A DNA stretch of 64,000 nucleotides from contig CAILLM010000004.1 in the NCBI GenBank assembly GCA_903835075.1, forward strand, positions 144,532 to 208,531. Reading direction: 5' to 3'. The notes below the pieces were generated by a model that saw only the letters and a list, made by a program, of their open reading frames with translations, was not told the origin of the DNA and ran no database searches. A program made the translations under genes and the position numbers. This document shows positions 9,832 to 64,000 of the stretch, one piece after another (the stretch's first letter is position 1; each line of letters starts with the position of its first letter). Source of the stretch: Candidatus Staskawiczbacteria bacterium (GTDB taxonomy: Bacteria; Patescibacteriota; Minisyncoccia; Minisyncoccales; Staskawiczbacteraceae).

Positions 9832-10517
9832 AACTCATTTTTTAAGCTACGGTAAGAATAGAAAGCTTCAGCATAGTTTAGGCAATTTTTTGCCCCCCAT
9901 AGTCGGGCATTTATTTTTATGGCTTCTAGTGATCTGGGGTGAGGGAAGTCTTTTAGTTCAGAGGCATAACAAGACATCGCTTTTATTTTTTGGTCTATTT
10001 CGTTTGTTACATCAACAAATATATTAGGTAGGAAAACATTACCGGGAATATTGTTTCCATTTTCTGTTGAAGAAAGAGTCTCAAACATATATATATCTTT
10101 TACACATTTATTTTCTGTAGGTCTGCATGCAATTATTACTGCTTTAGACGTTAAGTGGTGATCAATATTAATGTCTCCAAAATGATGGGTCAGAACTATC
10201 TCAGGTTTTATTCTGTTAATCACGTCGGATACTTTTTTGACTATTTCTAGGAAACTGACTGTGTCGAATTGGTTATCCGGAAAATCTGCCCATTCGTAAG
10301 AAGTAATACCTAAAAGCTTTACTGATTCTTCTAGTTCGGCTCGAGTTTTTTCTTGTACGTGTTCAATATTCGGTTCATTGCGAGATGACCGTCCTTCACT
10401 CAACACAAGAAGGGATACGTTATCTCCATTATTTGTATGTTTTATAATAATTCCGCCTGGGCCGATCACTTCATCATCGGGGTGGGCTACTATAACTAAG
10501 ATATTTTTTTTATTCAT
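9828..10517 (-). CDS. PIG-L/LmbE-family N-acetylglucosaminyl deacetylase
   Basis: 229 aa; ILVIVAHPDDEVIG and HHFGDINIDHH motifs. Confidence 0.85.
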   Translation of the reverse strand: MNKKNILVIVAHPDDEVIGPGGIIIKHTNNGDNVSLLVLSEGRSSRNEPNIEHVQEKTRAELEESVKLLGITSYEWADFPDNQFDTVSFLEIVKKVSDVINRIKPEIVLTHHFGDINIDHHLTSKAVIIACRPTENKCVKDIYMFETLSSTENGNNIPGNVFLPNIFVDVTNEIDQKIKAMSCYASELKDFPHPRSLEAIKINARLWGAKNCLNYAEAFYSYRSLKNEL

Positions 10518-10555
10518 TTCATTTTTGAGTCATAACCTGGCGAGCTAGCCAGGTA

Positions 10556-10584
10556 TTGACTAATTTTGTATATTATAATATAAT
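10556..10584 (+). promoter_or_regulatory. sigma-70-type promoter (TTGACT-17-TATAAT) for the RNHCP gene
   Basis: TTGACT 10556-10561, 17-nt spacer, TATAAT 10579-10584. Confidence 0.6.
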
Positions 10585-10638
10585 AATACATTCTACTGAA
10601 AAATTCAATACCTAGCAACCAACAGAAAGGAGATCGAG

Positions 10639-11145
10639 ATGAAGCATAGTAGAAAGATTGGTGATGGAGATGATGATGATTTTCCTGTCCGAATTGACGG
10701 AAAACGCCTAGACAGGCAAAAAAGGAAACTCATCAAGCAGTCTCGTGGTATATCTTTTCGGTGCGTCCATTGCTCCGTTGAGATTTCCACCAATGCCACT
10801 GCAACGGCCCATCGGAATCATTGTCCGATGTGTCTGTGGTCAAGGCACGTTGATAACTCTGTAGGGGACAGAAGGTCGACTTGTTTGTCAGCTATGAAGC
10901 CATTGGGGCTTTCAATCAAAGAACCTGGCGAAGAGCTAATGATTGTTCACCAATGTGTAGCTTGCGACAAGATTATCAGAAATCGTATCGCAGGCGATGA
11001 CAACAGTTTCGTAATTATGGATCTTCTAGAGAGCAGTTTGCTGCTCCCCGAAGAGAAAGAATGCGAGATCGCCAAGGCTGGCATACAATTATGTGTCGAT
11101 AGGGAACTTGTTTCCCAATGTCTTTGGGGCAAAGCGACGATATGA
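10639..11145 (+). CDS. RNHCP-domain zinc-finger protein
   Basis: 168 aa with the literal AHRNHCPMCLWSRHVD motif plus further CxxC pairs; clearly more GC-rich than its neighbours. Confidence 0.7.
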   Translation: MKHSRKIGDGDDDDFPVRIDGKRLDRQKRKLIKQSRGISFRCVHCSVEISTNATATAHRNHCPMCLWSRHVDNSVGDRRSTCLSAMKPLGLSIKEPGEELMIVHQCVACDKIIRNRIAGDDNSFVIMDLLESSLLLPEEKECEIAKAGIQLCVDRELVSQCLWGKATI

Positions 11146-11184
11146 TGATCTGTCCCCGACCAAAAATGGTAGAGAAATCTGCCG

Positions 11185-11226
11185 GGGGGAGAGGCATTGT
11201 GTCTTTCCCCTTTTTTATTTCTTGAA
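11185..11226 (+). terminator. intrinsic terminator
   Basis: GGGGAGAGgcattgtgtCTTTCCCC followed by TTTTTT. Confidence 0.7.
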
Positions 11227-11276
11227 TAAATTTATATAATATAACAGGCATTAGTATTCAATAATATTTTAAATAT

Positions 11277-12011
11277 ATGAAAAAAAGGATAAATAAACAT
11301 AGAGTTGGTATCCTAGGTTTTGGAGAAGTGGGCTCAGCAATTGCTAAGCTTTACAAAAATCCTAAGATAAAAGACCTGAAAAGAGATGACGGCCTTATGG
11401 GTGTTGATATTTTGAATGTGTGTATACCATGGAGCAAAGATTTTATAACTATAGTAAGAAAAGAAATTCAAATAATTAACCCTAAATTAACTATTATTCA
11501 TTCAACCGTAGAGCCCGGGACTACAAAAAAGTTGGCCGATATTTTCAATGGGATGGTTGTCCATAGTCCTATCCGTGGAACCCATCCTAATCTTTTTAAA
11601 GGATTGAAAACTTTCACAAAATATATCGGCTCAGACAATAAAAGGACTGGACTTTTAGCTAAAAATCATCTAGAGAATATGGGTATAAAAACAAAAGTCT
11701 TTATATCTTCAAAGACCACAGAGATGGGTAAACTTCTTGACACAACTTATTATGGGGTTTGTATAGCCTGGCATGGTGAAATGAAAAAAGTTTGCGATAA
11801 ATTGGGAATAAATTTTGAGCAAGCTGTAAATGATTTTAACGATACCTATAATGACGGGTATACAAAACTAGGTAAAAAATATGTTGTAAGACCAGTTCTT
11901 TACCCACCAACACACGGAATCGGAGGGCACTGCGTTATTCCAAATGCTAAAATTTTAAAAAAATATCTAAAAAGCAATGCCATTGATCTTGTGCTAGGCT
12001 ACGACCTTTAG
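11277..12011 (+). CDS. Rossmann-fold protein, short nucleotide-sugar dehydrogenase-like
   Basis: 244 aa; VGILGFGEVGSAIA dinucleotide-binding motif; HGIGGHCVIPN recalls the catalytic Cys region of UDP-glucose/GDP-mannose dehydrogenases. Confidence 0.4.
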   Translation: MKKRINKHRVGILGFGEVGSAIAKLYKNPKIKDLKRDDGLMGVDILNVCIPWSKDFITIVRKEIQIINPKLTIIHSTVEPGTTKKLADIFNGMVVHSPIRGTHPNLFKGLKTFTKYIGSDNKRTGLLAKNHLENMGIKTKVFISSKTTEMGKLLDTTYYGVCIAWHGEMKKVCDKLGINFEQAVNDFNDTYNDGYTKLGKKYVVRPVLYPPTHGIGGHCVIPNAKILKKYLKSNAIDLVLGYDL

Positions 12012-12669: not shown

Positions 12670-12691
12670 TTGTAAATAAACTTTTAAAAAT

Positions 12692-13024
12692 ATGGAAAAA
12701 ATAAAATTTAAACAAGATAAATATAAAAAGAATCGTGGCGGATATTCAAGATTTTTAGAAATAAAATGTGAAAGTTGTAGCGCTTTCATCGCCTTGTATC
12801 AGAAAGATGGGCCGGGTCCGCTGAAAAGGATGTATATAGATAGGATATTTTCTCCACAGAACTTAGTGAACTTACAAAAAGTTTCATTTAAAAAAATAAC
12901 CAACCTCACATGTTCTCATTGTAAACATATAATTGGTGTTCCAATTATCTACAAGAAGGAAAGTAGGCCTGCTTTTAGATTATTTGTCGGGGCTATAACC
13001 AAAAAGGTGGCAAAACTAAAATAG
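12692..13024 (+). CDS. 110-aa zinc-ribbon protein, copy 1
   Basis: CESC...CSHC pairs; paralog of 20775-21107 (7 of 110 residues differ). Confidence 0.7.
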   Translation: MEKIKFKQDKYKKNRGGYSRFLEIKCESCSAFIALYQKDGPGPLKRMYIDRIFSPQNLVNLQKVSFKKITNLTCSHCKHIIGVPIIYKKESRPAFRLFVGAITKKVAKLK

Positions 13025-13268
13025 TAAAAAGGTAATATATCTTATTTTCACCTAAAATTACTGGAAATAAGACACTTCCAAGATTTGTTAAAATCAAAAA
13101 CAAATGAGACACTAAAATGGTACGATATTTTGTCTCATTAGTCTCATTTCCCGAATAAAATTATAAGAAGTGAGACTCGGAGAATCTCGCCAATTTTATA
13201 TAAATTTTCTATAATTAAGCCCTACTAGGACACATCAGTTGGAAAACTCAAAAGGGTCTAATTTCCCC

Positions 13269-15023
13269 TTAGGGGATTGGGTTCGCAACTGACTCATTCA
13301 GCCATCGTGGAGAAAACGGCGTAGAAGCGCCGTTTTTAGCTGTAAAATCGGCTAAAATTCCAGGTTCGAGCGTGGCTAAAAGCGCTTTCTGTTCTTTAAG
13401 CTCGTTTTCTATCAACATATAGGGGTGTAGCTTATCGATAGTTAGGATTCCATCTTTTATGATTAGGTTCGAGCCGATAGTAGAAAATATCTCTCTTTTC
13501 TCTCTTAGGTTTGGCGTATTAAATTGTTTTAGTGCAAATGTGCAGAAATTAAAAACACGCTCGGATGTCTCAAGATCTCTGTCTAATTTTTCTTTGCTGC
13601 CTCCCATTTGTTTTTCTAAATTTGTTCTCTCAGAAATTATTTGTTTTTTCTGGGCCATAAAATCTTCGGGCGTGTAAAGCTCATACTTTGAATTAAGAGG
13701 GGAGGTGAACTCTCTGTTTAAATTTACTAATCTTTTTTGACAGTCATCAAATGCGTCTTGCAGAGAAACGCGAATGACTTTTTCTTCATTGCCGGACTCT
13801 TTTTGTTTTTCTTGTAAATAATCTATAGCTATTTTTAGATAACCGTCATCAATAGTTATATCTCCCAATATTTTATTAAACTGATTTTCCAAATCTTTAA
13901 CCTTAATATATTTTTGAGTGCAGTTAAGATTTCTTTTCTTTGTACATCGATAGTATATGTATTCTAAGATTTTGGGGTTTTCCATTAAGGAAATATCTGT
14001 TGAGCATTTTGGGCAAGCGGTGGTATTCACATGAGAAAATTTATGTTTGCATTTAGTGCAGATTATTTGATGTTTCTCTTCGGCCGTGATTGATGAGCCA
14101 CATTCTCCACATTTCATTGTTCCGGTAAAAGCGAATTCTCTTGTTTTTGGTTGTGGTTTGCCTTTTTTACCTAAAAGAATTTGTGCCCTCCTATATTCAT
14201 TCTCGGTGATCATGGGCTTATGATTGCCCTTAATCATAGCGATTTCTCCAGTCTCTGAATCTTTCCACGGATAAAAACCATAGTAAAAAGGACTATTAAA
14301 TATCTTATAAATAAGACTTATCGTTAGGGGATTACCTCCCTGTTTTCTGTGCATTATTGTTCTTAAACCCCATTCTTTATCGCTGATATTTCTAATTTTA
14401 GAAACCGAATAAGTTCCAGTAAGAAATAAATCCCACATTTTGCGGACAAGTTCAAAACGCTCTGGGTCTGGCGCGATAGTCTTGCTGCCTTTTTCTATTT
14501 CTACGTTTATATATCCAATCGGCCCCCCGGACGGTCGCCAGCCACGCATAGCCTTGCTGTTCAATCCGCGCTTCACATTTTTAGAAAGGCGCATTACATA
14601 ATCAGTAGCCCTGCCACCCTCTATGCTCATTAGGAGCCCGGCATCTTCTGGAAAGTACGAACGGCCAGGAGTTTTAATAACCTTAATAACGCCTTTTTGG
14701 AGCATCCATTGTAGCCTGCCATTATCAATCGGGTTGCGCGACAATCTGTCACAATCGTAACAGATTAAAGCGTTGGCCTCCCCATTCTCAATCCTATTCA
14801 ACATATCGTTGAATACAGGCCTTCCTGGGTCTTTGGCGCTCTTTTCTTCGGTGAATGGTGGTTTTACCAAATCCAACTGCTCGCGTTCAACTAAGCGCCT
14901 TAAAACTTCTTTCTGGTCGCCTATAGAAGCGATTTGTCTTTGGGAGGACTCCTCTGAACTTTTTCGGCAATACCCAAAAAATTTTGTTGTATCTTGTATT
15001 TTTTTATTCATATTTTTAAACAT
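13269..15023 (-). CDS. large serine recombinase (resolvase N-domain, recombinase domain, zinc ribbon)
   Basis: 584 aa; FGYCRKSSEESSQRQIASIGDQ (catalytic Ser region), CYDCDRLSRN, Cys-rich MKCGECGS...CTKCKH...CPKC. Confidence 0.9.
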   Translation of the reverse strand: MFKNMNKKIQDTTKFFGYCRKSSEESSQRQIASIGDQKEVLRRLVEREQLDLVKPPFTEEKSAKDPGRPVFNDMLNRIENGEANALICYDCDRLSRNPIDNGRLQWMLQKGVIKVIKTPGRSYFPEDAGLLMSIEGGRATDYVMRLSKNVKRGLNSKAMRGWRPSGGPIGYINVEIEKGSKTIAPDPERFELVRKMWDLFLTGTYSVSKIRNISDKEWGLRTIMHRKQGGNPLTISLIYKIFNSPFYYGFYPWKDSETGEIAMIKGNHKPMITENEYRRAQILLGKKGKPQPKTREFAFTGTMKCGECGSSITAEEKHQIICTKCKHKFSHVNTTACPKCSTDISLMENPKILEYIYYRCTKKRNLNCTQKYIKVKDLENQFNKILGDITIDDGYLKIAIDYLQEKQKESGNEEKVIRVSLQDAFDDCQKRLVNLNREFTSPLNSKYELYTPEDFMAQKKQIISERTNLEKQMGGSKEKLDRDLETSERVFNFCTFALKQFNTPNLREKREIFSTIGSNLIIKDGILTIDKLHPYMLIENELKEQKALLATLEPGILADFTAKNGASTPFSPRWLNESVANPIP

Positions 15024-15170
15024 ACTAAAAGGGACTGGAAAGCAAAAGGTTATTTGTTAAGGACAACCCAGTTTCCAGCCCCTTGTAGTATTCTATTGAT
15101 ATAAATAAAATACCCTTTGCCATGCTGAATTGTCCTTAACGATTTAATTATATAACATTTCTTGGTTTTA

Positions 15171-15449
15171 TCAACGTTTTGCATGTCCGCCACCCCTCAT
15201 TGGCGTTGGGGGCATCCTCCCAATACTATCAATTTCATCGAAAAATTCGATAATTTCTTTCCCATTTACTTCGGAAAATTTTATTTTTTTACTTATTTTT
15301 TTTAGCCTCCAAACATCCCAGTTATCAAAAGAATGAGGGCAGTAAGCATCTTCTCTCCAGCGTTTTTTACAATCACTACAATAGTTCGAATTTTGAATAA
15401 AAAGTGCGTTTATATGAGCCTCAGTTGTTGGTATAAATTTGTTTTGCAT
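15171..15449 (-). CDS. hypothetical small Cys/His-containing protein
   Basis: 92-aa ORF between the recombinase and primase genes; CSDCKKRW...YCPH. Confidence 0.4.
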   Translation of the reverse strand: MQNKFIPTTEAHINALFIQNSNYCSDCKKRWREDAYCPHSFDNWDVWRLKKISKKIKFSEVNGKEIIEFFDEIDSIGRMPPTPMRGGGHAKR

Positions 15450-15613
15450 ATTTTGATTATTTAATTAAACATGTTCTATTTTGCTAGTTCTGCCTAGCAG
15501 ATGACCAGCAACAGGCAACTGATTTAATGTTTTGTATCCACGCATCCCACCGCGTGGATACATATAAATACTGCTGGTTACTAGTTATTACTATATAGAT
15601 AGATATCCTATAA

Positions 15614-17578
15614 CTAGCACGATTCAATCTGTGATATATCGGGAGGATTCAGTCCGCTATCTTTTTCTATAAAATACAAAAGTTCATTGCTCTTTCCTAC
15701 CGGATTAAAAAGTTTAAGCCCTCTTTTTATAGCCTCTGCTCTGGTTATTTCTTTAACGCCTTCTTTCCCATTTGCTAATAATTTAGTTGCCATTTTGATG
15801 GCGGTATCCCCTCCAATTTTTAAATGCTTAAAATCTTTTCTGCCGAGTAATTCATCCCTCCTCTCAAGCTCATAAATGATCCCAGCCACCGCCTCATTTA
15901 AGGCCTGCTCTTTCGGTTTATGATCTCCCAAATATTCAAAATCAATTCCGCTATCGCTGATTTTAATGCTTATATCAAAATCAGAAAGTTTTTTACCAGC
16001 TTTAGTTTTTAAATGTTTAACTATTAAAAATTTTTCTCCATCTTTTTCAAATTCCTCAAGGGCTATGTGTCCGCTTATCGAAGCGTTTATTGCTGATGAA
16101 CCGCGAGACATTTCAGCGTCGTCGGCCCTCATAAAACCATTTTTCTTTTTATTGTGGTGCGTGAAAATAACCGTTATGCCCTCTCGATTGATTCTCTTAA
16201 ATCTGTCTAAAACTTTCTGCATTTCTTGACTGCTATTTTCTTCTGCATCGTGTATTGCCCTTAAACTGTCAAACATAATAACTCCAATATTTTTCTCCTT
16301 AGCTTCTTTAATAAGATTATCAACAAATTCATCTGTGAGTTTTGAGCCTTGAGCGATGCGATAGAAAATAGAAAGCGAGGGATCCGTAAGATTGAGAAGC
16401 TTTAGTCTATCCTGAATTAAGCATGCAATATCTTCTTCATTTACAATCATTACATTGTTTTTCTCTGTCGCGAATTTTCCAAACAAAGAAGTGCCGGTGA
16501 CAATATGTTTAGCATAAAGAAATAGCCACCACGATTTCCATCCGTTTGGCGGTGCCGATATCATATTCATAGCGCCTTTTTCGCACAGTATGTCAATTAC
16601 ATATCGTACCGGAGGAAATATTGTCGCCATAAGTTCAGCGTGGGTCATGGCCGGCAGATAATTATTTACAACATCATTCTCCGGACTGTTTTGATTTTGG
16701 TTGTTCCAATTCATGGTTTCTAGGTGATAACATTTTTCAAACATTCCTTCTCTGTAATCCTTTCTATCCCATTTTTCACGCATCAAGCCGGAGCTTCTAA
16801 ATATCCTATCTGCGACTACTGTATTATTTTGGCAGAAAAACATTAATGATCCCACAAAAGATAAATCGGCTTCGGATTGCGACTTTTTTTCTTCTTTTCT
16901 AAAATACTTCTCCCAATTTCCTTGATATAAGTCTTTTAGTTTTTCTCCGTGTTTGCTTTTGAACATCACCTCTAATATTTTGTTGTCGTCCGGCAAAAGA
17001 GTGGACTGTTGTGTTTGTGGAATTTGTTTTTCTTTTTTAGGATTATCCTTAATAAATGAATTATGCCATTTTAGGAAAAAATCCTGGTCATATTGCTTTA
17101 ATTCTTTATAATCGCCATAAATGTTTCCAGTAACTGTAAAATATCTGCCCCTACAATATCTCTCAATATCGCCGTCTCCAATATAGGTTTTGGCTCCTTT
17201 AAAATCAGCCTCGCATAAAATAAAGATATGAAGACCAGTTCCAGATGGAGAGATTTCTATATAACTTGGAAATAAATCAACAATATCTTTTGCCCATTGT
17301 TTTAAAGTGAATCCGTCTTCTTCAAAACAGTGGTCTAGATCGATCCCGACTACCCCCTGTGTAAAAACATACCCCAATCCATTAAATTGGTTAGTCTCTA
17401 AAAGTTTTTTACAATTTTCAAAACTCAGCCAGTCATTAGGATTTGTACTAGCTGCTTTTTGAGCAGTATTTTTATATGGCACTTTAGTGGGTTTTTCTTT
17501 TCCGGCAACTTTTTCAAATTTCCAAACTATCCACTGTTTTTGCTCTTTTAATATTTGAGGAAATGCATCATATGACAT
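15614..17578 (-). CDS. bifunctional PrimPol-type primase with a RecA/DnaB-like (RepA-type) ATPase
   Basis: 654 aa. The N-terminus has GVVGIDLDHC and SPSGTGLHIFI (PrimPol motifs). The C-terminal half has a P-loop-like SAPPNGWKSWW and a Walker-B-like GVIMFDSL. Confidence 0.8.
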   Translation of the reverse strand: MSYDAFPQILKEQKQWIVWKFEKVAGKEKPTKVPYKNTAQKAASTNPNDWLSFENCKKLLETNQFNGLGYVFTQGVVGIDLDHCFEEDGFTLKQWAKDIVDLFPSYIEISPSGTGLHIFILCEADFKGAKTYIGDGDIERYCRGRYFTVTGNIYGDYKELKQYDQDFFLKWHNSFIKDNPKKEKQIPQTQQSTLLPDDNKILEVMFKSKHGEKLKDLYQGNWEKYFRKEEKKSQSEADLSFVGSLMFFCQNNTVVADRIFRSSGLMREKWDRKDYREGMFEKCYHLETMNWNNQNQNSPENDVVNNYLPAMTHAELMATIFPPVRYVIDILCEKGAMNMISAPPNGWKSWWLFLYAKHIVTGTSLFGKFATEKNNVMIVNEEDIACLIQDRLKLLNLTDPSLSIFYRIAQGSKLTDEFVDNLIKEAKEKNIGVIMFDSLRAIHDAEENSSQEMQKVLDRFKRINREGITVIFTHHNKKKNGFMRADDAEMSRGSSAINASISGHIALEEFEKDGEKFLIVKHLKTKAGKKLSDFDISIKISDSGIDFEYLGDHKPKEQALNEAVAGIIYELERRDELLGRKDFKHLKIGGDTAIKMATKLLANGKEGVKEITRAEAIKRGLKLFNPVGKSNELLYFIEKDSGLNPPDISQIESC

Positions 17579-17583
17579 ATAAT

Positions 17584-17751
17584 TTACTTTTTAATTTTTA
17601 ATTTAGAAATATCAACATTTTTTGTAATGGCCCCGACTAGGCATATAAGATTTTCAAAGTAATTCAAAGCTTCGTCATCTGATATGGTTTTCTTATTTTT
17701 GAGTTCGTATAACTCCTTAAATTTTTGTATATACTTTTGCTTGTCTAACAT
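17584..17751 (-). CDS. possible 55-aa protein upstream of the primase gene
   Basis: Not in the ORF track (under 60 aa). My translation is MLDKQKYIQKFKELYELKNKKTISDDEALNYFENLICLVGAITKNVDISKLKIKK. Its stop lies just upstream of the primase ATG. Confidence 0.3.
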   Translation of the reverse strand: MLDKQKYIQKFKELYELKNKKTISDDEALNYFENLICLVGAITKNVDISKLKIKK

Positions 17752-17752
17752 A

Positions 17753-17982
17753 AAAAAATCCGCTCATCTGCTGGCAGGTTTTCATCCTTTACATGACACC
17801 TGCCCGCAAATAAACGGACTTTCTAAAAGGATGAAATTTATGTCAGCTATTAAAAATTAAAACGTAAAAAGCCGACAGTTTATTCGCTGCCGGCTTAGAG
17901 TATGACTTGATTTTATAAAACGAAAAAGCCAAAACAATAAACGACAGTTTAAAAAAATAAACTGCAATCTATTGTTTTGGCT
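17753..17982 (-). terminator. three tandem stem-loop/U-tract structures (minus-strand sense)
   Basis: Hairpins at about 17753-17818, 17857-17896 and 17916-17982. Each is followed on the minus strand by a T-rich run (TTTTTTT, TTTTTACGTTTT, TTTTTCGTTTT). Confidence 0.5.
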
Positions 17983-18124
17983 CGTATAGCTCACCTCTGT
18001 GAGTTACCTATAGTAAGGAAACAATATTTTTAATGTGTGCATCCCGCACACAAGATGATTTCTGAACTTTAATGAACTCTTTACTCTATTATATAGCGAT
18101 CCCAATTGGTCAGTCAAGCCCTAC

Positions 18125-18430
18125 CTAAAAATAAATTATGCCGTCAGGGGTAAATTTAAAATAATTCATATGTTTGCAAAAGCGGCATTTCCAGTACTTT
18201 CCAATGCTGAAATCTCTCAATAATTTTTTAATTTTATCGGGCGAAGCAGTCGGGTACTCTTTTCCTAAAAAACTACTGCATTTTTTGCATTTCCATTTGA
18301 ACTTCTCATTCATTGTATAAATAAATATTAAAGTTTCAGTATGGTTTAAAATATCATCCACTTCTTGTCTTAAAACCATCAAATTTTCTTTATCCAGGAT
18401 TCGCTCAATTGCTCTCTTTCGGGAAAGCAC
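18125..18430 (-). CDS. zinc-ribbon protein, distantly similar in pattern to the 110-aa paralogs
   Basis: 101 aa; KCKKCSSF...(spacer)...CRFCKH, compared with KCESCSAF...CSHCKH in the 110-aa proteins. Confidence 0.45.
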   Translation of the reverse strand: MLSRKRAIERILDKENLMVLRQEVDDILNHTETLIFIYTMNEKFKWKCKKCSSFLGKEYPTASPDKIKKLLRDFSIGKYWKCRFCKHMNYFKFTPDGIIYF

Positions 18431-19224
18431 ACGGTTTCGAAATATGGATGACCACTAACGGCACTTTCAGTTGTGCAAAGGTGGCTAAGGATGTCGACCA
18501 AATCATTTTCTCGATTCATGGTCTGGCAGAAACTCATGAGGCGATTACTCAGAAACCAGGTTCATTTTTGCTGGCTCGTAGGCACATCGTAGAGGCTTCT
18601 ACGATGACCAGCGTTTCCATCAATATGGTGCTGATTAAGCGTAACTTTCATGAGCTGAATGATGTTTTCGCCTATTTCAGCCAACGATGTGAATTATCTA
18701 CATTCTATTCGCCAATTCCAATTAAATCTAATTCTGGTTTCGACTATAGTGAAGATTCTTTGGAAGTGACCGAGGAACTTCTCGAAGAATATCGGGCGAA
18801 GTTATCTATGATACCTCCTCCAAAACTTGGCTTAAAGCACGGTTACCAGAACATCTATCTTAACGATCCAACTTGTTATACTTCGGCTACAATACCATTG
18901 GCAAACTGCGCCGCTGGCAAGTACAAAATCGTTATTGACTATGATGCCGATGTTTACGCCTGTAACTTTTTCAGAAGTCCGGAATTCTTGTGTGGCAATA
19001 TCCTTTCCGGAGACGCAAAGGAGATATGGCATACCGGAAAAGGCTTTAATCATTTCAGGAGACTGAGCTTGAACGAGTCATTCCCGGATAAATGCAACAA
19101 TTGCATCAAACGCTTTAAATGTGCAGGCGGTTGCCTGGCATGGACAGAAGGATACAGAAATGAAAATTATGAAAACGTCAACGACTTCAGGTGTGAAATT
19201 GGGCATGCATTTGTTGGAGGTTGA
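18409..19224 (+). pseudogene. radical SAM/SPASM enzyme, 5'-truncated (no CxxxCxxC cluster region)
   Basis: The 271-aa frame begins mid-domain (WMTTNGTF...). The C-terminus is SPASM-like (CAAGKYKIVIDYDADVYACNF...CNNC...CAGGC). Upstream in-frame sequence is AT-rich with a stop at 18322. GC-rich. Confidence 0.65.
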
Positions 19225-20160
19225 GATTACCACCAGGTGTAATCTTGACTGTAAACATTGTTATAATCGTAACCGGGTTATGGCGGACATGCCGATGAGT
19301 GAGATCCTCTCGCTATTGGCATTTTCCCAGCAAAACGGAGTTTCTTCGTTTGTGGTTTCGGGCGGAGAGGCATCTTTCATCCGCAATTTGACTATTTGGC
19401 AAATTATTTGCTGGAAACTAAGCCTGACATCAGGACCGTCCTGCAAACAAACGGAATCGTTCGCAGGAAAAATCTTGATATGCTGAAAGGCTTCAAGGTT
19501 GTCCATATAAGCTATGAGCCTGACGATTCTACGGTTAGAAAAATTGTAGGTGCTGACATTATCCGTCTTGCATTGGACTTAAAGGATCGGGGAATATATC
19601 CTTACCTTTTTGTCACAGTTCACCAGGGAAATATCAACAGGATCGATACCATGGTGGATACCGCAAACAGTTTGGGGTTGGATATCGGTTTTAATCTCTG
19701 CATCTCAACGCATGAGAGTCCTGAATTAGTTCTTTCACCCAAGCAAACGATTGAGACCAGTCAAAAACTGCTCGATCTGTATCTTGCTAAAAGAATTCTC
19801 AGGTTCACCTCGCCGTTAGTTGCCGTCATTCAGGATAAGCAATCCGATGGCTATATCGGCAACAGAGGCGGATGCACAGCCGGAATAGCTACATGTTCTG
19901 TGACGGTTGACGGGGATGTTATTCCTTGCCCATTTTTCAGAACAGTTTCAGCAGGGAATATTCACGTGCAAACATTAGAGGATATCTGGCTTGGATCGCC
20001 AATCTTTGATTCGCTGAGGGCCAGAAATAAGTTCGATGAGCCATGTGGTTCTTGTAAGCATCTTTCGTATTGTGGGGGATGCCGTAAAAGGGCGTTAGAC
20101 TCTTCGGGCAAGCTGACGGGAGCAGACCCGGGTTGCTTTTTGGAGCTTTGTAAAGTATAA
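19160..20160 (+). pseudogene. radical SAM/SPASM enzyme disrupted by a frameshift near 19376
   Basis: The N-terminal frame gives LEVEITTRCNLDCKHCYN...VVSGGEASF. The sequence then continues in another frame as HPQFDYLANYLLETKPDIRTVLQTNGI...CTAGIATCSVTVDGDVIPC...CGSCKHLSYCGGC. This is consistent with one missing base in TCTTTCAT. Confidence 0.7.
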
Positions 20161-20190
20161 CGGACAGTGCAATACTGGCCGTTCTTTTTT
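20160..20190 (+). terminator. intrinsic terminator
   Basis: ACGGACAGtgcaataCTGGCCGT followed by TCTTTTTTT. Confidence 0.65.
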
Positions 20191-20241
20191 TAGCATTTTT
20201 CTGTTAAAAGATGTAAAATATAATAAGTTAAATCTAAACAC

Positions 20242-20775
20242 ATGACATTAAGTAAAAATAATATAATAATTACTGAGCCCACGTTGGAAGATGTTTTGGG
20301 ATTAGTTTTTGTACATAAGAAAACATGGTTAGATACGTATCCAAATAAAAAATATAAGATTTTTAAAAAAGATATTTTATTGAAAGATTTCGATAGTGAG
20401 AAAAAAATAAATAAATGGAAAAGAAGAATAAAAAATAACGGCAAAAAAAAGGAATATATTTGTGTTGCTAAAGATAGAGAAAAGGTTGTTGGATTTTGTT
20501 CTATTTCAAAAGGAGAGAAAATAAACGAATTAAAAACTATATATGTTTTGCCGGAATACCAAAGAATGAAAATAGGAAATAAACTATTTAATAAAGCAAT
20601 TAATTGGCTTGGTGACAAGAAAAACATAAAGACATTAGTAGCAATCTATAACGAAAATGCAATCAAGTTTTACAAAAAACATGGCTTTGCCAAAACGACG
20701 GTTACTAAAAGTTATAAATTTCCGAATGGAAAAATTATGCCGGAAATGCAATTAGTATTTAGCCGTAATAAATAA
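20242..20775 (+). CDS. GNAT-family N-acetyltransferase
   Basis: 177 aa; VVGFCSISKG...IYVLPEYQRMKIGNKLFNKAINWL (acetyl-CoA binding region); its stop overlaps the next ATG (TAATG). Confidence 0.8.
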   Translation: MTLSKNNIIITEPTLEDVLGLVFVHKKTWLDTYPNKKYKIFKKDILLKDFDSEKKINKWKRRIKNNGKKKEYICVAKDREKVVGFCSISKGEKINELKTIYVLPEYQRMKIGNKLFNKAINWLGDKKNIKTLVAIYNENAIKFYKKHGFAKTTVTKSYKFPNGKIMPEMQLVFSRNK

Positions 20776-21107
20776 TGGAAAAAATACAATTTAAACAAGA
20801 TAAATACAAAAAGAATCGTGGAGGTTATTCAAGATTTTTAGAAATAAAATGTGAAAGTTGTAGTGCTTTCATCGCTCTGTATCAAAAGGATGGCCCTGGT
20901 CCACTGAAGAGGATGTATATAGATAGAATATTTTCTCCGCAGAACTTAGCAAACTTACAAAAAGTTTCATTTAAAAAAATAGCCAATCTCACGTGTTCTC
21001 ATTGTAAACATATAATTGGTGTTCCAATCATCTACAAAAAAGAAAGTAGGCCTGCTTTTAGGTTATTTGTCGGGGCTGTAATTAAGAAGGTATCAAAAAT
21101 AAAATAA
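20775..21107 (+). CDS. 110-aa zinc-ribbon protein, copy 2
   Basis: By my hand count, about 32 of 333 nt differ from copy 1 and most are third-position changes; 7 aa differ. Confidence 0.7.
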   Translation: MEKIQFKQDKYKKNRGGYSRFLEIKCESCSAFIALYQKDGPGPLKRMYIDRIFSPQNLANLQKVSFKKIANLTCSHCKHIIGVPIIYKKESRPAFRLFVGAVIKKVSKIK

Positions 21108-21132
21108 AAAAAGTTAATGAATAATTTTAATA

Positions 21133-22131: not shown

Positions 22132-22244
22132 ATGTTCGAAATTAAAGAGTTTAAATTTGCATCTAAATTTTTGATGAATACGTATTACTTTATGTTGGAG
22201 GGATGGGTCGGTTTCTTCAACATTTTATAAGTAATTAATTAAGC

Positions 22245-22281
22245 GTTCTTCGCGAAGTTTTTTAAAAACTTCGCGAAGAAC
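22245..22281. promoter_or_regulatory. perfect 18-bp-arm inverted repeat holding two CTTCGCGAAG palindromes 21 bp apart; candidate operator or hairpin
   Basis: GTTCTTCGCGAAGTTTTT t AAAAACTTCGCGAAGAAC, ending 8 nt before the ATG at 22290. Confidence 0.5.
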
Positions 22282-22289
22282 AATAACAC

Positions 22290-23027
22290 ATGAATAAACA
22301 AAAATATAGTTTTTTATTAGTAACAGGCTTAATAGCTTTAAGTTTTTTGGTTACAACTTCAGCATTTGCACAAACAAATAGCAATGGAGTAGGCCGTGGA
22401 ATGATGAATAGGGGTGGGCAAGGTCCAGTAATTTCCGGAACGGTTTTAACTGTAAGTGGCAATACCATAACAGTTTCCGCTAAAAGAGGGTTGGGTGATA
22501 AAAATAATTCAACAGTTACAACTTATACGGTTGACGCTACAAATGCCAAAGTAACTAAAAATGGTACAGCTTCAACAGTTTCTGCAATCGTAGTTGGAGA
22601 CAAATTATCAGTCCAAGGAACAATTACAGGGACAAATATTGTAGCAAAAAACATTCGTGATGGTGTGGTTCAGCCACCAATCCGAGGCAATGGTCAGCCA
22701 ATAGTTGCTGGAAAAATCACAGCAATTAGTGGCAACAGTATAACCATTACAAATAGTAGCAATGTAGTTTATACAGTTGATGTGGCAACTGCTAAGTTGG
22801 TTGTAAGAGGGGTGACTAGCCCAACAATTTCAAGTCTTGCAGTTGGTGATAATGTAGTAGTGCAGGGAACAGTTAACGGAAACAACATTACTGCTTCATC
22901 GGTGATTGATCAAAAAGTAAAACAAGCAGTAAGCGATGATAATTCAGGAAATCAAAAGTCAGAAACAGGAATGGGTGGAATGATGAGAGGAATTGGAAAT
23001 TTCTTTAAGCACATGTTTGGTTTTTAG
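22290..23027 (+). CDS. secreted protein with two internal beta-rich repeats
   Basis: The signal-peptide-like N-terminus ends in SAFAQ. Repeated module: ISGTVLTVSGNTITVS...YTVDATNAKV...VGDKLSVQGT versus KITAISGNSITITN...YTVDVATAKL...VGDNVVVQGT. Confidence 0.65.
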   Translation: MNKQKYSFLLVTGLIALSFLVTTSAFAQTNSNGVGRGMMNRGGQGPVISGTVLTVSGNTITVSAKRGLGDKNNSTVTTYTVDATNAKVTKNGTASTVSAIVVGDKLSVQGTITGTNIVAKNIRDGVVQPPIRGNGQPIVAGKITAISGNSITITNSSNVVYTVDVATAKLVVRGVTSPTISSLAVGDNVVVQGTVNGNNITASSVIDQKVKQAVSDDNSGNQKSETGMGGMMRGIGNFFKHMFGF

Positions 23028-27598: not shown

Positions 27599-27853
27599 TT
27601 ATGACAAGTGTTTTGAAACTAACTTTGTCATTTCAAACATATTTACTTCTGCTTTGCCAAAAACTGGTTTTAGTTTGTCGTCAGCAAAAATGTTTCTTTT
27701 GTTTTTTGGGTTTTGAAGATCATTCTTCTTAATGTAGGCCCAAAGTTTTTTTACAACTTCACTCCTTGGCATAGGACCTTTTCCTACGACTGCTTCTAAT
27801 TCAGCAGTAAGTTTTAACGGCTTCATGAAAGCCGAATTTGCTTTTCCTGGCAT
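27599..27853 (-). CDS. SWIB/MDM2-domain protein
   Basis: 84 aa; LTAELEAVVGKGPMPRSEVVKKLWAYIKKNDLQNPKNKRNIFADDKLKPVFG matches the SWIB pattern. Confidence 0.8.
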   Translation of the reverse strand: MPGKANSAFMKPLKLTAELEAVVGKGPMPRSEVVKKLWAYIKKNDLQNPKNKRNIFADDKLKPVFGKAEVNMFEMTKLVSKHLS

Positions 27854-28416: not shown

Positions 28417-29562
28417 ATGAATAAGAATATTGTAATAAATGACCCTAATGAGGGCGTTTTAATTAAGGCGTTAGAAGAAAGAACTGACATTAAGGCTGAA
28501 AGAATAAAAAGGCTTTTGACTTTGCCTGATTTAACTAAAAAGGATAATTCTCCTGTGAAGATTTTGGTTGACCGCATTTTAGAACTGCCAAGGTTTGCTG
28601 ATTTTGATTTAATTGAAATTCCCAAAATAGCAACCGTAGAAAAAGAATTTGATATTCTTAATTCTCCTAAAGACCACCCAACCAGAAGAGAAACCGACAC
28701 ATTTTTTATAGACAATACCAACCACTTACGTACACAAATGACAGTAATGTGGTCTTATTATTTGAAAAATCCTGAAATTTTAGAAAAACTGGAAAAAGAA
28801 GGAGAAGTAAAAGCATTGTCTACGGGAATAGTTTTTAGAAAAGATGAAATTGATAGAAAACATTTTCCTGCTTTTCACCAAATTGACGGATTGTTAATTT
28901 GTAAAAAAGAAAAGAAAATTATAACGCTAGATGACTTGAAGGAGGTTGAGAAAGACATGACAGAAAGCATTTTTGGAAAAGATATAGAGTACAGATTTTT
29001 GGTTGATTCATTCCCTTTTACAGACCCTTCGGTGCAAATTGAAATTATGTCTAATGGGGATTGGATGGAAGTTGTTGGTTCAGGTTTGGTGCATCCGCAA
29101 GTTTTAATAAATTTGGGCTTAGACCCAGAAGTTTATAATGGTTGGGCATTTGGTTTTGGAATTGAACGTTTGGCTATGGTAAAAATGGGGATTCCTGATA
29201 TTAGAATTTTATGGTCTGGCGACGAAAGAATCACAAGTCAATTTAAAGACATAAATAGTAAATTTGCCCCAGTAAGTAAATTTCCATCAACTTCACGTGA
29301 CATATCTTTTATAATTGATAAAAACATAAACTTAAATAATTATTACGAGATTGTGCGCGACTTCGCTGAAAACTTAATTGAAGAAGTAAAATTAGTTGAT
29401 GAATTTGAAGATGACGCAAAATTTGGAGCAGATAAGAAGAGCTATACTTTTAGAATTGTTTACTGCTCGCCAGAAAAAACTTTAACCAATGAAGAAGTAA
29501 ATAAAATTCAAGACGAAATTCGCGCAGAAACAGTTAAGGAATTAAATGCAGTATTAAGATAA
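28417..29562 (+). CDS. pheS: phenylalanine-tRNA ligase, single-chain form (alpha catalytic core plus C-terminal FDX-ACB-like domain)
   Basis: DHPTRRETDTFF, motif 2 GIVFRKDEIDRKHFPAFHQIDG, motif 3 GWAFGFGIERLAM. A ~95-aa tail follows (SKFPSTSRDISFII...KKSYTFRIVYCSPEKTLTNEEVN), like the ferredoxin-fold anticodon-binding domain. Confidence 0.8.
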   Translation: MNKNIVINDPNEGVLIKALEERTDIKAERIKRLLTLPDLTKKDNSPVKILVDRILELPRFADFDLIEIPKIATVEKEFDILNSPKDHPTRRETDTFFIDNTNHLRTQMTVMWSYYLKNPEILEKLEKEGEVKALSTGIVFRKDEIDRKHFPAFHQIDGLLICKKEKKIITLDDLKEVEKDMTESIFGKDIEYRFLVDSFPFTDPSVQIEIMSNGDWMEVVGSGLVHPQVLINLGLDPEVYNGWAFGFGIERLAMVKMGIPDIRILWSGDERITSQFKDINSKFAPVSKFPSTSRDISFIIDKNINLNNYYEIVRDFAENLIEEVKLVDEFEDDAKFGADKKSYTFRIVYCSPEKTLTNEEVNKIQDEIRAETVKELNAVLR

Positions 29563-60625: not shown

Positions 60626-62233
60626 ATGATACACACATTGGGAAATGTTGATAAGCAAGTTCTTTTGGAAATTGCCAGTGAGAAACAGATTCGTAAAACA
60701 AGCGAACTTTTTTTGTTATTTTCTTTGGGTAGTCAATTTGACCATTTAATTAAGCAGGCCGTAGATAGGCTGGGGGTGTTTTGTTTGGTGGCAGATCCAA
60801 ACAAAATTACAGCAGAAGACGTGAGGAAAATTAAACCTAAGGGAATAATTGTTTCTGGCGGACCAGCCTCTGTTTATGAAGGCACCTTGTCATTTGACTG
60901 TAAAATCTTTGACTTGGGAATACCTGTGATGGGTATTTGTTTGGGCTTTCAACTGTGGGCTCAGCACATTGGGTGTAGTGTTGAGAAATCTCCAAAAAGA
61001 GAATTTGGTACACACCATCTTAGCATATTTGAAAATACAATTCTTTTTAGTGGGTGTCACAGTGGTTGCAATGTTTTAATGAGTCACGGTGATAATGTTT
61101 TGAAAACCACTAACTCTAAAATTAGGGTTTTAGCATATACTGATAATTGTCCAATAGCTGCTGGTAATTACAAGCATCTTTGGGGCGTGCAATTCCACCC
61201 AGAAGTTACAGAAACAACAATTGGCCCCCAAATTTTCTGGAGTTTTTGTTTTTTGATTTGTAAAGCAAAAAACAAATATCCGGCCAAAGATGTGGCAAGG
61301 GAGAAAATATTGTCCCTGCGAGAAACAATTGGTAACAAGAATGTTTTGCTAGCACTTTCAGGTGGCTCGGACTCCTCAACAGTTGCTTATTTGTTGCGTG
61401 ATGCTTTAATTCACGGGCAATATGAAACTACGGACCAGTTGAGGGGAGTATATATTCGCGGAATTGACAGACCCGATGACGAAGATCATGTTCGCAAATA
61501 TTTTGACTGGATTGATTTAAAAATTGTTGATGCTACGGATCGCTTTTTGAAAGCCTTGCGTGGCAAAAAAACAATGCCTGAAAAACGGTTGGCAATGAGG
61601 GGAGTCTATAAGGCTGTGCTTGAAAAAGAGGCCATAGAATTTGGTGCTAATTTTATTGCGCAAGGAACGCTTTTTACTGATATTTCAGAAAGTGGTGGGG
61701 GGTATGAGGGTGAAAAAAAGGCTCAAATAAAACTTCACCATAATGTGGAGTTGGGATTTTCATTCCCAGAGCTTACTCCGCTTGACGACTGTGTGAAAGA
61801 CACTGGGCGTAGCATTGGTAGAGAAATTGGTGTTCCCGAAGATTTACTTGTTCGGCAACCTTTTCCTGGCCCTGGTTTGATTGTTAGGATTGAAGGAGAA
61901 ATTACTGGTGACAAGTTGAAAATTGCTCGTCAAGTGGACGACATTTATATTCATGAATTGCGAAACGCGGGTCTTTATGAAGGCGTTTGGCAAGCAGGCG
62001 CGGTAATTACGCAATCTGTTACAACTTGCACCAAAGGCGACGGCGCTGCTAGTGGAATTGTTGTTGCTTTGTGGGCAGTTTGGAGTGTAAATGGTTTTAC
62101 TGCTCAAGCTGCAGAATTGCCTTGGGATTTCATAAAACTTGTTTCACAAAGAATTACCAATAATGTGCCCGAAGTTGGTGCTGTGGTTTACAGAACTTCT
62201 GACAAACCACCTGCCACCATAGAGTGGGGTTAA
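60626..62233 (+). CDS. guaA: GMP synthase (glutamine-hydrolysing)
   Basis: GATase GICLGFQ...VQFHPE; ATP-PPase LALSGGSDSS; C-terminal ...KPPATIEWG. Confidence 0.9.
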   Translation: MIHTLGNVDKQVLLEIASEKQIRKTSELFLLFSLGSQFDHLIKQAVDRLGVFCLVADPNKITAEDVRKIKPKGIIVSGGPASVYEGTLSFDCKIFDLGIPVMGICLGFQLWAQHIGCSVEKSPKREFGTHHLSIFENTILFSGCHSGCNVLMSHGDNVLKTTNSKIRVLAYTDNCPIAAGNYKHLWGVQFHPEVTETTIGPQIFWSFCFLICKAKNKYPAKDVAREKILSLRETIGNKNVLLALSGGSDSSTVAYLLRDALIHGQYETTDQLRGVYIRGIDRPDDEDHVRKYFDWIDLKIVDATDRFLKALRGKKTMPEKRLAMRGVYKAVLEKEAIEFGANFIAQGTLFTDISESGGGYEGEKKAQIKLHHNVELGFSFPELTPLDDCVKDTGRSIGREIGVPEDLLVRQPFPGPGLIVRIEGEITGDKLKIARQVDDIYIHELRNAGLYEGVWQAGAVITQSVTTCTKGDGAASGIVVALWAVWSVNGFTAQAAELPWDFIKLVSQRITNNVPEVGAVVYRTSDKPPATIEWG

Positions 62234-62254
62234 CTCACAAAACAATTTGTATTG

Positions 62255-62286
62255 CTCTGCGACCAATAGGACGCGGAGTTTTTTTT
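62255..62286 (+). terminator. intrinsic terminator (loop ACCAATAGGA)
   Basis: CTCTGCGaccaataggaCGCGGAG followed by TTTTTTTT. Confidence 0.75.
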
Positions 62287-62299
62287 GGTTATTTAACGG

Positions 62300-62327
62300 T
62301 TGACAAAATGGCAAAAATGAGTAGAAT
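62300..62327 (+). promoter_or_regulatory. TTGACA-16-TAGAAT promoter
   Basis: TTGACA 62300-62305; TAGAAT 62322-62327. Confidence 0.55.
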
Positions 62328-62433
62328 ATATTTATTCGTCCTTTCACATTTTCAAATTGATTTATCTTGGTGGATAGAACCAACGACTGTGCAAGTGCGA
62401 CCAACCAACAACCACAACAACCATAATAACCGT

Positions 62434-63730: not shown

Positions 63731-63804
63731 AGGGGCGTAGTGAAATGGTATCATATCGGTCTCCAAAACCGCTGGTCTGGGTTCGATTCCCAGCGCCCCT
63801 GCCA
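63731..63804 (+). tRNA. tRNA-Trp (CCA) with encoded CCA end
   Basis: Hand-folded. Acceptor AGGGGCG/CGCCCCT, anticodon loop CTCCAAA, canonical T arm CTGGG-TTCGATT-CCCAG, 3' GCCA. Confidence 0.85.
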
Positions 63805-64000
63805 GTTCGGTGTTAATATAATTTTTCCTTCTATTTCAAGATTTTTTACCAATTTTGTAGGCTCAGTTCGGACAATTTTTCGGTCTTTTATCCAAAACCC
63901 ATCCCAGAATAGGGACAAGTAAAGCCTCTTTATATGATAGGGGGCTTTTTTGTATGCTTCATAAACATTCCTTGCCATCATTAAAACCTCTCTTAACAAA
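63751..64000 (-). CDS. 3' end of a second serine-recombinase-like gene (gene starts beyond the right edge); its last ~18 codons overlap tRNA-Trp antisense
   Basis: IKRLYLSLFWDGFWIKDRKIVRT parallels KREIFSTIGSNLIIKDGILTI in the 13269-15023 recombinase. The tails RWESNP and RWLNESVANP are also similar. Confidence 0.5.
   Translation of the reverse strand, partial: LLREVLMMARNVYEAYKKAPYHIKRLYLSLFWDGFWIKDRKIVRTEPTKLVKNLEIEGKIILTPNWQGRWESNPDQRFWRPI

Follow-up and report, generated by a model that had tools for sequence, protein, structure and literature searches.

The locus described here raises the question of what kind of element brought a large serine recombinase (LSR) and a primase-polymerase (PrimPol) fused to a helicase into a bacterial chromosome, where this element begins and ends, and how it came to lie beside a radical SAM (rSAM) gene that has lost its 5′ part. 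The locus belongs to a 64,000-nt stretch of DNA (hereafter the window) from Candidatus Staskawiczbacteria bacterium (assembly GCA_903835075.1, contig CAILLM010000004.1, positions 144,532–208,531). On balance, we judge it probable that the locus is a genuine integrated small integrative replicon, reduced and rearranged, which was re-inserted together with adjacent host genes and is now probably immobilised. From its LSR and PrimPol-helicase module, the element is predicted to work like an integrative plasmid. A first-pass annotation had placed an integrated element of this kind at 13025–18430, and the open reading frames (ORFs) that it described all exist where it put them.

The LSR, a 92-aa Cys/His protein (p92), the PrimPol-helicase, a 55-aa protein (p55) and a non-coding block all lie on the minus strand (Table 1). 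Domain searches with Pfam, PHROG and NrS-1 structures confirmed both the recombinase and the PrimPol/AAA_25 assignment. Judged by its domains, the window LSR is a clear member of the large serine recombinase family: Resolvase, Recombinase and Zn_ribbon_recom all exceed the Pfam gathering scores, the catalytic domain (PF00239, 2.3e-17) occupies residues 16–161, PF07508 (5.4e-6) and the zinc ribbon PF13408 (2.2e-6) lie C-terminal to it, and the PHROG 95 integrase family aligns over residues 7–530, almost the full length (1e-56). In an alignment of 22 relatives, Y14, R16, K17, S18, S19 and E20 are invariant, and the window protein keeps every invariant column. Its nearest relatives are 74% identical, and the clade comprises 2,391 proteins in Patescibacteria (E ≤ 1e-20), with more than 100 clusters at 54% identity or above. 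In scans of viral contigs, by comparison, LSR matches were only 22–24% identical and the PrimPol found no match.

The replication protein combines two modules. Residues 10–273 align with the NrS-1 structures 6k9a, 6a9w and 7rr3 (E about 1e-33 to 6e-34), with the DLDH and SPSGTGLH segments of this alignment matched, and the NrS-1 helix-bundle domain is recognised in addition (PF22763, 1.1e-14). The ATPase module matches PF13481 (AAA_25) at residues 316–480 (2.9e-22) and RSF1010 RepA (1g8y) over residues 315–500 (E 1.2e-7). By these profiles, the protein is a clear member of the AEP/NrS-1 PrimPol and RepA/AAA_25 families, and helicase activity is predicted. Among annotated plasmids and phages, no protein spans at least 80% of its 654 residues.

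We found the closest relatives of the LSR, the PrimPol-helicase and a flanking 110-aa protein in Pacebacteria, Kaiserbacteria, Ryanbacteria and Minisyncoccia bins, all of them Patescibacteria (Candidate Phyla Radiation, CPR). Homologues of the PrimPol-helicase (45–49% identity) directly precede LSR genes, on their upstream side, at the related loci L010, L012–L015 and L016. More generally, relatives always have a gene for a replication protein immediately upstream of the LSR; the type of this protein varies between Prim-Pol plus AAA_25, D5_N/DUF5906 and AAA_25 alone. Homologues of p55 (44–63% identity) number more than 15 among the related loci and in every case immediately precede the replication gene. 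The resulting order of p55-like gene, replication gene and LSR is shared by L016, L052, L054, L059, L062–L066, L068–L072 and L083; the window has it too, apart from the insertion of p92, the flanking intergenic DNA of which is uninterrupted in L010. For p92, a 101-aa zinc-ribbon ORF (p101), the rSAM genes, the GNAT acetyltransferase gene and the 110-aa gene, the related elements contain no homologues.

The target of the family becomes apparent from 28 loci whose LSRs share at least 35% identity with the window LSR, and most of them at least 52%. At 19 of these loci the LSR gene and a convergent tRNA gene overlap by their 3′ ends; the tRNA is mostly tRNA-Asn and otherwise tRNA-Gln, tRNA-Ser, tRNA-Trp or tRNA-Tyr. 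Where it is tRNA-Asn, CCA plus acceptor stem, read in reverse complement, give the conserved WL(R) at the C terminus of the LSR, and the LSR tails beyond it, which are variable in length, are read-through of the tRNA; at L054, the LSR stop codon lies within the tRNA anticodon loop. In 12 of 15 relatives, a strong hairpin with a T-run, lying on the same strand as the tRNA and within the LSR coding sequence, directly follows the tRNA 3′ end. The element appears to provide the tRNA that it abuts with a replacement terminator from within the coding sequence of its own integrase.

One relative, the 11,434-bp contig L073, has ends that overlap exactly over 63 bp, as is usual for circular contigs. 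Its genes include those for an AAA_25 protein, an LSR and a Trypsin_2 peptidase, besides a 121-aa ORF; the LSR is followed by about 1 kb in which no ORF reaches 70 aa, and a tRNA-Ser-like 3′-end mimic stands directly after the LSR motif SIPAL. It is thus likely that the family has circular as well as integrated members. With an LSR paired with a replication protein throughout the relatives and a circular signature in L073, the kind of element named by the first-pass annotation, an integrative replicon, holds good; its boundaries do not, and the duplication of the flanking 110-aa gene had been missed. Where the extent of relatives could be estimated, it ranges from about 9.5 kb to beyond 10 kb, with additional modules such as the Trypsin_2 peptidases of L052 and L073, so that the window copy of about 5 kb represents a reduced derivative.

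At locus L060, two LSR elements (535–2189 and 10001–11767, recombinases 27% identical) are integrated in tandem at one tRNA-Asn, and a 17-nt copy of the tRNA 3′ end marks the boundary between them, which suggests a T-loop crossover for at least one of the two recombinases. This is the only direct repeat of a tRNA 3′ end that we found at the far ends of relatives. Since relatives appear to exceed 10 kb, the 10-kb flanks were probably too short to reach far-end repeats, and closely related pairs of elements in different hosts were not available for end mapping. At L052, the LSR abuts an intact tRNA-Asn, and downstream of this gene (11777–11980) the tRNA 5′ end is repeated twice more in a tandem array, each repeat consisting of about 20 nt of the tRNA together with about 73 nt from upstream of it. 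The array may be the scar of repeated integration.

A second tRNA of the window bears on the same geometry. The first-pass annotation had pointed to another recombinase locus at tRNA-Trp. The ORFs at 60626–63588 encode GMP synthase and an AP_endonuc_2 protein, and in this respect the suggestion fails; an ORF at the window end (63790–64000, minus strand) does read through the tRNA-Trp 3′ end. This ORF runs off the window, ends with NWQGRWESNPDQRFWRPI and a stop codon, and passes antisense through the 3′ end of the tRNA (63731–63804) as in the LSR family. Its 82 visible C-terminal residues match no family, so that it is at most a putative recombinase.

We located the left junction by comparison with two sister contigs without the element, L117 and L118, both found via the closest homologue of the 110-aa protein. 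L117 has the order rSAM2, GNAT, 110, X′, a terminator of its own and Y′, with no LSR, and L118 agrees over its shorter span. Homology of L117 to the left copy of the 110-aa gene (110-L) and to the adjoining spacer X stops at window position 13303–13305. The junction thus lies 36 nt inside the LSR ORF, the tail of which reads into a host relic, and 13025–13303, being present in element-free sisters, is host DNA. The left end had been put at 13025; it lies at 13303–13305, or as early as about 13283, in either case inside the LSR ORF.

The host relic into which the LSR reads resembles tRNA-Asn. Its 3′ half (13269–13304) encodes, antisense, the last 11 LSR residues and the stop codon, and this tail, WLNESVANPIP-stop, can be aligned, codon for codon, to the L054 tail that tRNA-Asn encodes (WLREQDSNLRPIA, stop), with one in-frame gap of 6 nt. 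Compared with tRNA-Asn genes of relatives, the 3′ half scores above shuffles for three of five tRNAs (p 0.004–0.015), and pairwise alignment detects no tRNA similarity in the 5′ half. Neither ARAGORN nor Rfam (E up to 10) reports a tRNA at the left end. Where the family has an LSR 3′ end over a convergent tRNA, the window therefore has only a degenerate tRNA-Asn-like 3′ half. If the crossover takes place at the very 3′ end (CCA), the left junction would be 13303–13305. The 17-nt repeat in L060 and the tRNA-3′-end mimic in the circular L073 suggest that the crossover may instead fall in the T-loop at about 13283–13289, in which case the final ~17 nt would also be supplied by the element.

A terminator-like hairpin with a T-run inside the LSR coding sequence follows directly after the relic 3′ end on the plus strand, and L117 has its own terminator at the equivalent place. 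Upstream, spacer X contains a promoter-like site facing the relic (TCGCCA-17-TATAAT, 13187–13215) and four GAGAC/GTCTC motifs (13100–13185), two direct and two inverted, which are nearly invariant between the window and L117/L118 while the surrounding spacer varies. They may form a protein-binding array.

On the right side, conserved element sequence ends with p55, at about 17767. With attL mapped to 13283–13305, a candidate attR lies at 18099–18120, but it is weak: an imperfect copy of the relic 3′ segment (TCCCAATTG-GTCAGTCA against TCGCAACTGAGTCAGTCA in L117; p = 0.063, not significant), which overlaps the right-hand members of the motif pairs that the first-pass annotation had offered as candidate ends. 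These pairs are present exactly where they were reported, and shuffling shows that they do not exceed chance: the two end regions share two exact direct 9-mers where 2.0 are expected, and a shuffle contains on average 3.9 inverted 11-mers when up to one mismatch is allowed, so that at least one pair of this kind is to be expected. The motif ATTGGGTTCGC (13276–13286) is a T-loop remnant of the host relic, which the empty sister site has as well, and GCGATCCCAAT (18096–18106) lies in the spacer of a near-consensus minus-strand promoter.

Beyond this candidate, the element side is joined to the interior of the first radical SAM gene (rSAM1′). The remnant matches family models only from about position 81; it retains the SPASM domain and lacks roughly 55–80 N-terminal codons, among them the CxxxCxxC motif. 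No rSAM 5′ half is present at the other end of the element, and the downstream arm of the L117 empty site occurs nowhere in the 64-kb window. The joint is therefore illegitimate and not attR, and with no clear attR left, the LSR probably cannot excise the window copy precisely. The 5′ truncation noted earlier is thus a real novel joint and not a clean split of one gene, since in the sister genome the block of rSAM2, GNAT and the 110-aa gene lies to the left of the attachment site. With the second gene (rSAM2′) frameshifted, both rSAM genes of the window are pseudogenes.

The rSAM segment has a GC content of 42–47% in surroundings of about 32%. From the rSAM1 3′ end to about nucleotide 393 of the GNAT gene (window 18984–20635, L117 1–1650), that is, through about the first three quarters of GNAT, the window and L117 are 98–99% identical; the identity falls to 84–89% through the GNAT 3′ end, the 110-aa gene and X. 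The drop inside GNAT indicates that the rSAM segment is recently shared DNA with a recombination breakpoint near GNAT nt 394, and the pattern points to a recent horizontal exchange of the rSAM pair and part of GNAT with the sister lineage.

The arrangement as a whole is framed by two copies of the 110-aa gene. 110-L and the right copy, 110-R, form 333-bp direct repeats of 90.4% nucleotide identity that lie 8,083 bp apart, with similarity extending from about 8 nt before the ATG to about 16–20 nt past the stop codon; 7 of 110 residues differ, with 23 codons changed synonymously and 7 non-synonymously. The copies enclose X, the element, rSAM1′, rSAM2′ with its frameshift, and GNAT; the outer flanks are memb197 and an S66 LD-carboxypeptidase. 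The encoded protein is a CxxC...CxxC zinc ribbon with more than 1,100 members in Patescibacteria, often as two nearby paralogues, and with a weak, sub-threshold match to the RIG-I C-terminal domain. Around genes of this family, no synteny is conserved among 23 genomes of a GTDB-based collection.

Three segments of L117 align with the window: 1–2137 with 18984–21118 (95.7%), 1788–2384 with 12688–13305 (83%) and 2412–2734 (Y′) with 22150–22479 (73%). In both sister contigs, the single 110-aa gene has GNAT directly upstream, with the same overlapping TAATG junction, and X′ directly downstream. In the window, 110-L keeps only the downstream linkage to X and 110-R only the upstream linkage to GNAT. 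Each copy thus retains one ancestral linkage, as expected for the product of a crossover within the 110-aa gene, and because GNAT, the 110-aa gene and X are contiguous in L117, the 8,083-bp unit is a circular permutation of the sister order.

We infer two chromosomes, a donor and a recipient, and between them an aberrant circle. Formation of the present arrangement would have proceeded in two steps: (i) an aberrant circle made up of the element and adjacent chromosome was closed by an illegitimate joint between the far side of the element and rSAM1, and (ii) this circle entered a chromosome of the order memb197-110-S66 by a single homologous crossover in the 110-aa gene (Campbell-type). A circle with the order 110-X-element-rSAM1′-rSAM2-GNAT would match a chromosome of the L117 type that carries the element at X. 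The PrimPol-helicase could have maintained the circle, the persistence of which is plausible for an element competent in replication.

The arrangement recurs at 100% identity in independent assemblies from several samples, some contigs crossing the joint of element and rSAM, and is therefore not an assembly artefact. The housekeeping genes of the window (gyrB, pheS, IMPDH, adenylosuccinate synthase) identify it as chromosomal.

Several observations nevertheless weigh against re-insertion of a circle. The 110 alleles of 110-L, 110-R and L117 are about equidistant (90.4, 87.1 and 88.9%) and offer no clean switch point of mismatches, so that the crossover itself is not visible. Neither an empty memb197-110-S66 allele nor an 8-kb circle junction was found among the contigs: all contigs of the population carry the same occupied arrangement, and exact-protein look-ups with both 110 copies, memb197 and S66 returned only this arrangement or contigs broken at the repeat. 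A tRNA-Asn profile run with nhmmer misses the relic, for which the statistics of tRNA ancestry are modest (p 0.004–0.015). The position of the crossover differs between lines of evidence, L060 and L073 favouring the T-loop and the comparison of the window with L117 the CCA end. Finally, if the repeat at 18099–18120 is real, the element would still have an att site on either side.

The alternative that survives best, although we regard it as unlikely, is integration in place followed by deletion. Here, the chromosome would already have carried two paralogues in the order memb197-110-X-...-rSAM1-rSAM2-GNAT-110-S66; the element would have entered the relic in X by means of its LSR, and its far end would later have been lost by deletion along with attR and the 5′ part of rSAM1. 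At 5 of 23 other Patescibacteria loci, two 110-family paralogues do lie within 0.1–3 kb of each other, but such pairs are far more diverged, with the second copy 41–52% identical to the query at the protein level compared with 94% in the window. The left junction resembles a normal attL of the family, and deletions beside mobile elements are common. The single copy of the sister, however, has GNAT upstream and X downstream, and had the gene alone been duplicated, one copy would be expected to keep both neighbours, a pattern that the window lacks. The scenario also requires more steps than a single crossover.

We consider it very improbable that the locus comprises domesticated host genes or a dead remnant without activity. 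The copy shows no presence/absence polymorphism across samples, has no clear attR and is much smaller than its relatives, all of which speaks for such a reading; both large ORFs are nevertheless intact, the invariant LSR columns are kept, and the PrimPol aligns with NrS-1 through DLDH and SPSGxGxH. In addition, the module is absent from the sister site, and its homologues occur in many different genomic contexts. Least probable of all is the clean element at 13025–18430 that splits a radical SAM gene and is bounded by 9–11-nt motifs: its gene content and the rSAM truncation are real and its right-hand motifs overlap the weak match to the relic 3′ segment, but 13025–13303 is host DNA found in element-free sisters, the other end lacks an rSAM 5′ half, the motif pairs are no more frequent than by chance, with one motif in the host relic and the other in a promoter spacer, and the comparison with L117 refutes both the left boundary and the split gene.

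Table 1 Features of the locus, in window coordinates
Feature	Position	Strand	Basis or remark
110-aa zinc-ribbon gene, left copy (110-L)	12692–13024	plus	left direct repeat of the 8,083-bp unit
Host spacer X	13025–13218	plus	conserved in element-free sisters L117 and L118
Degenerate tRNA-Asn-like relic, attB side of attL	13219–13304	plus	occurs in the L117 empty site
Large serine recombinase (LSR), 584 aa	13269–15023	minus	Pfam and PHROG matches
Left junction (attL crossover) interval	13283–13305		homology to L117; T-loop alternative
Hairpin and T-run inside the LSR coding sequence, terminator-like	13312–13337	plus	z = −3.8
92-aa Cys/His ORF (p92)	15171–15449	minus	insertion relative to related element L010
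NrS-1-type PrimPol fused to RepA/AAA_25 helicase, 654 aa (replication protein)	15614–17578	minus	structure-profile and Pfam matches
55-aa two-helix protein (p55)	17584–17751	minus	core gene, upstream of replication gene
Hairpin-rich non-coding block	17752–18124	minus	inverted repeat, promoter scan, fold test
Weak candidate attR	18099–18120	plus	imperfect copy of relic 3′ segment, direct orientation
101-aa zinc-ribbon ORF (p101)	18125–18430	minus	no homologue in related elements
Illegitimate joint, element side to rSAM1 interior	18395–18409		onset of rSAM1 homology
rSAM1′, radical SAM/SPASM, N-terminal [4Fe-4S] motif region gone	18409–19224	plus	family models
rSAM2′, radical SAM/SPASM, frameshift near 19380–19400	19121–20160	plus	97.7% identical to L117, intact there
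GNAT acetyltransferase	20242–20775	plus	translationally coupled to 110-R
110-aa gene, right copy (110-R)	20775–21107	plus	right direct repeat of the 8,083-bp unit

The non-coding block had been described as rich in hairpins, and the fold test bears this out: its DNA fold has z = −6.2, and none of 100 shuffles is equally stable. On the minus strand it contains a near-consensus promoter (TTGACT-18-TATAAT, 18117–18088, 11 of 12 positions), several hairpins, one with 25-bp arms at 17927–17982, and a strong intrinsic terminator at 17896–17869, about 190 nt after the promoter with three hairpins between; a large hairpin with a T7 run stands immediately before p55. No Rfam family attains its gathering score in the block, which is plausibly a candidate replication origin or control region, or else a small RNA gene of about 200 nt.

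Searches with Pfam and other family models and with PHROG gave no convincing family match for p92, p55 or p101. The structure model of p55 predicts a helical hairpin of two helices, too simple for a fold search. Excision by serine integrases requires a directionality factor, for which p55 or p92 would be a purely speculative candidate. The first ~10 codons of p101 are antisense to the rSAM1 remnant, and p101 is therefore probably truncated or outside the element; its similarity to the 110-aa protein is marginal (E 0.005 over 27 residues), and we do not regard the two as homologous. Virion, packaging and morphogenesis genes were not detected, PHROG matches being confined to integrase and primase/helicase, though unassigned small ORFs could hide some. 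We rejected an inovirus-like prophage, as no morphogenesis genes were detected, and the packaging, capsid-redirection or virion genes of a phage satellite (of the phage-inducible chromosomal island (PICI) or P4 type) or prophage were likewise not found.

Three further genes of the window stand apart from the element. An RNHCP-domain gene at 10639–11145, beside a cluster of sugar-modification genes, has a GC content of 45–47% amid about 32% and may be another foreign insert. The gene at 28417–29562 encodes a 381-aa phenylalanyl-tRNA synthetase (PheRS) with tRNA-synt_2d and FDX-ACB domains, an architecture that we take to be associated with the single-chain, mitochondrial-type enzyme, and an 84-aa gene near 27600–27850 encodes a SWIB-domain protein (both from precomputed Pfam assignments of a matching public contig). 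PheRS of the FDX-ACB type and SWIB proteins are unusual for bacteria.

What the locus adds beyond its own history is a matter of the family. Our literature search found no description of LSR replicons at tRNA 3′ ends in Patescibacteria, and three features at the family level look undescribed: the serine integrase at the tRNA end, the ORF that crosses the junction and the terminator embedded in its coding sequence. We tentatively suggest, with less confidence than we place in the history of the window copy, that these elements constitute a large undescribed Patescibacteria family in which (i) the integrase gene straddles the att site at the tRNA end, so that its tail is swapped on integration, (ii) its coding sequence doubles as tRNA terminator, and (iii) the window copy shows a second entry route that does without the integrase. 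If so, a self-replicating element with picked-up host genes would be a vehicle of gene exchange in bacteria with few known transfer mechanisms. Little has been described of the mobile elements in the ultra-small Patescibacteria, most of which are uncultured, and a widespread family of serine integrases at tRNA 3′ ends runs counter to the usual division of targets between serine and tyrosine enzymes.

The family would also supply many natural pairs of integrase and attachment site for recombinase engineering. The tail of a serine recombinase ORF reading through a convergent tRNA is an annotation signature by which similar islands can be delimited. The window copy would illustrate how such an element carries neighbouring host genes into a new chromosomal context, and its proposed history would explain both the local gene duplication and the two radical SAM pseudogenes.

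The element can be compared with several known systems. The serine integrases phiC31, Bxb1 and TndX of Tn4451 share the architecture of the window LSR, a resolvase catalytic domain, a recombinase domain and a zinc ribbon, and their genes likewise lie at the element edge by the attachment site. Serine-recombinase elements usually insert in and disrupt protein-coding genes, and tRNA 3′ ends are typical targets of tyrosine integrases (PMC5704250). The family described here differs from the described serine integrases in that it sits at tRNA 3′ ends and its integrase ORF crosses the junction. Closest in target choice is the filamentous Ralstonia phage phiRSM, the serine recombinase of which integrates a small replicon at a tRNA gene end, with an attP that corresponds to 13 bases of tRNA-Ser and matches the end of the gene (PMC4471427). 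However, phiRSM is an inovirus with a small enzyme of the resolvase/invertase type, whereas the window has a 584-aa LSR and a PrimPol-helicase. For the replication protein, NrS-1 PrimPol and RSF1010 RepA are the counterparts of the N-terminal 270 residues and the C-terminal ATPase, respectively, which the window fuses in one protein of 654 aa on a chromosomal element.

Integrative plasmids and the integrative and conjugative elements of actinomycetes (AICEs) of the pSAM2 type are small replicons that alternate between tRNA-integrated and circular states, and imprecise excision of phage lambda picks up the adjacent gal or bio genes. The proposed history of the window copy resembles both by analogy, as a replicon with tRNA-integrated and circular forms that would have picked up host genes and re-entered by homologous recombination; its integrase is a serine and not a tyrosine enzyme, and transfer and packaging genes are not present.

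Closest in logic are the staphylococcal cassette chromosome (SCC) elements, which combine the LSRs CcrAB or CcrC with the helicase Cch and the primase-polymerase CcPol and insert at the 3′ end of rlmH without destroying the gene. By analogy, the window element would be a comparable LSR island with helicase and primase-polymerase at a gene 3′ end. It is not an SCC element: the CcrA and CcrB models match the window LSR weakly and in part (39.6 bits against a cut-off of 900 and 25.8 against 700), its target is a tRNA or tRNA-like relic instead of rlmH, and its helicase is RepA/AAA_25-like and fused to the PrimPol.

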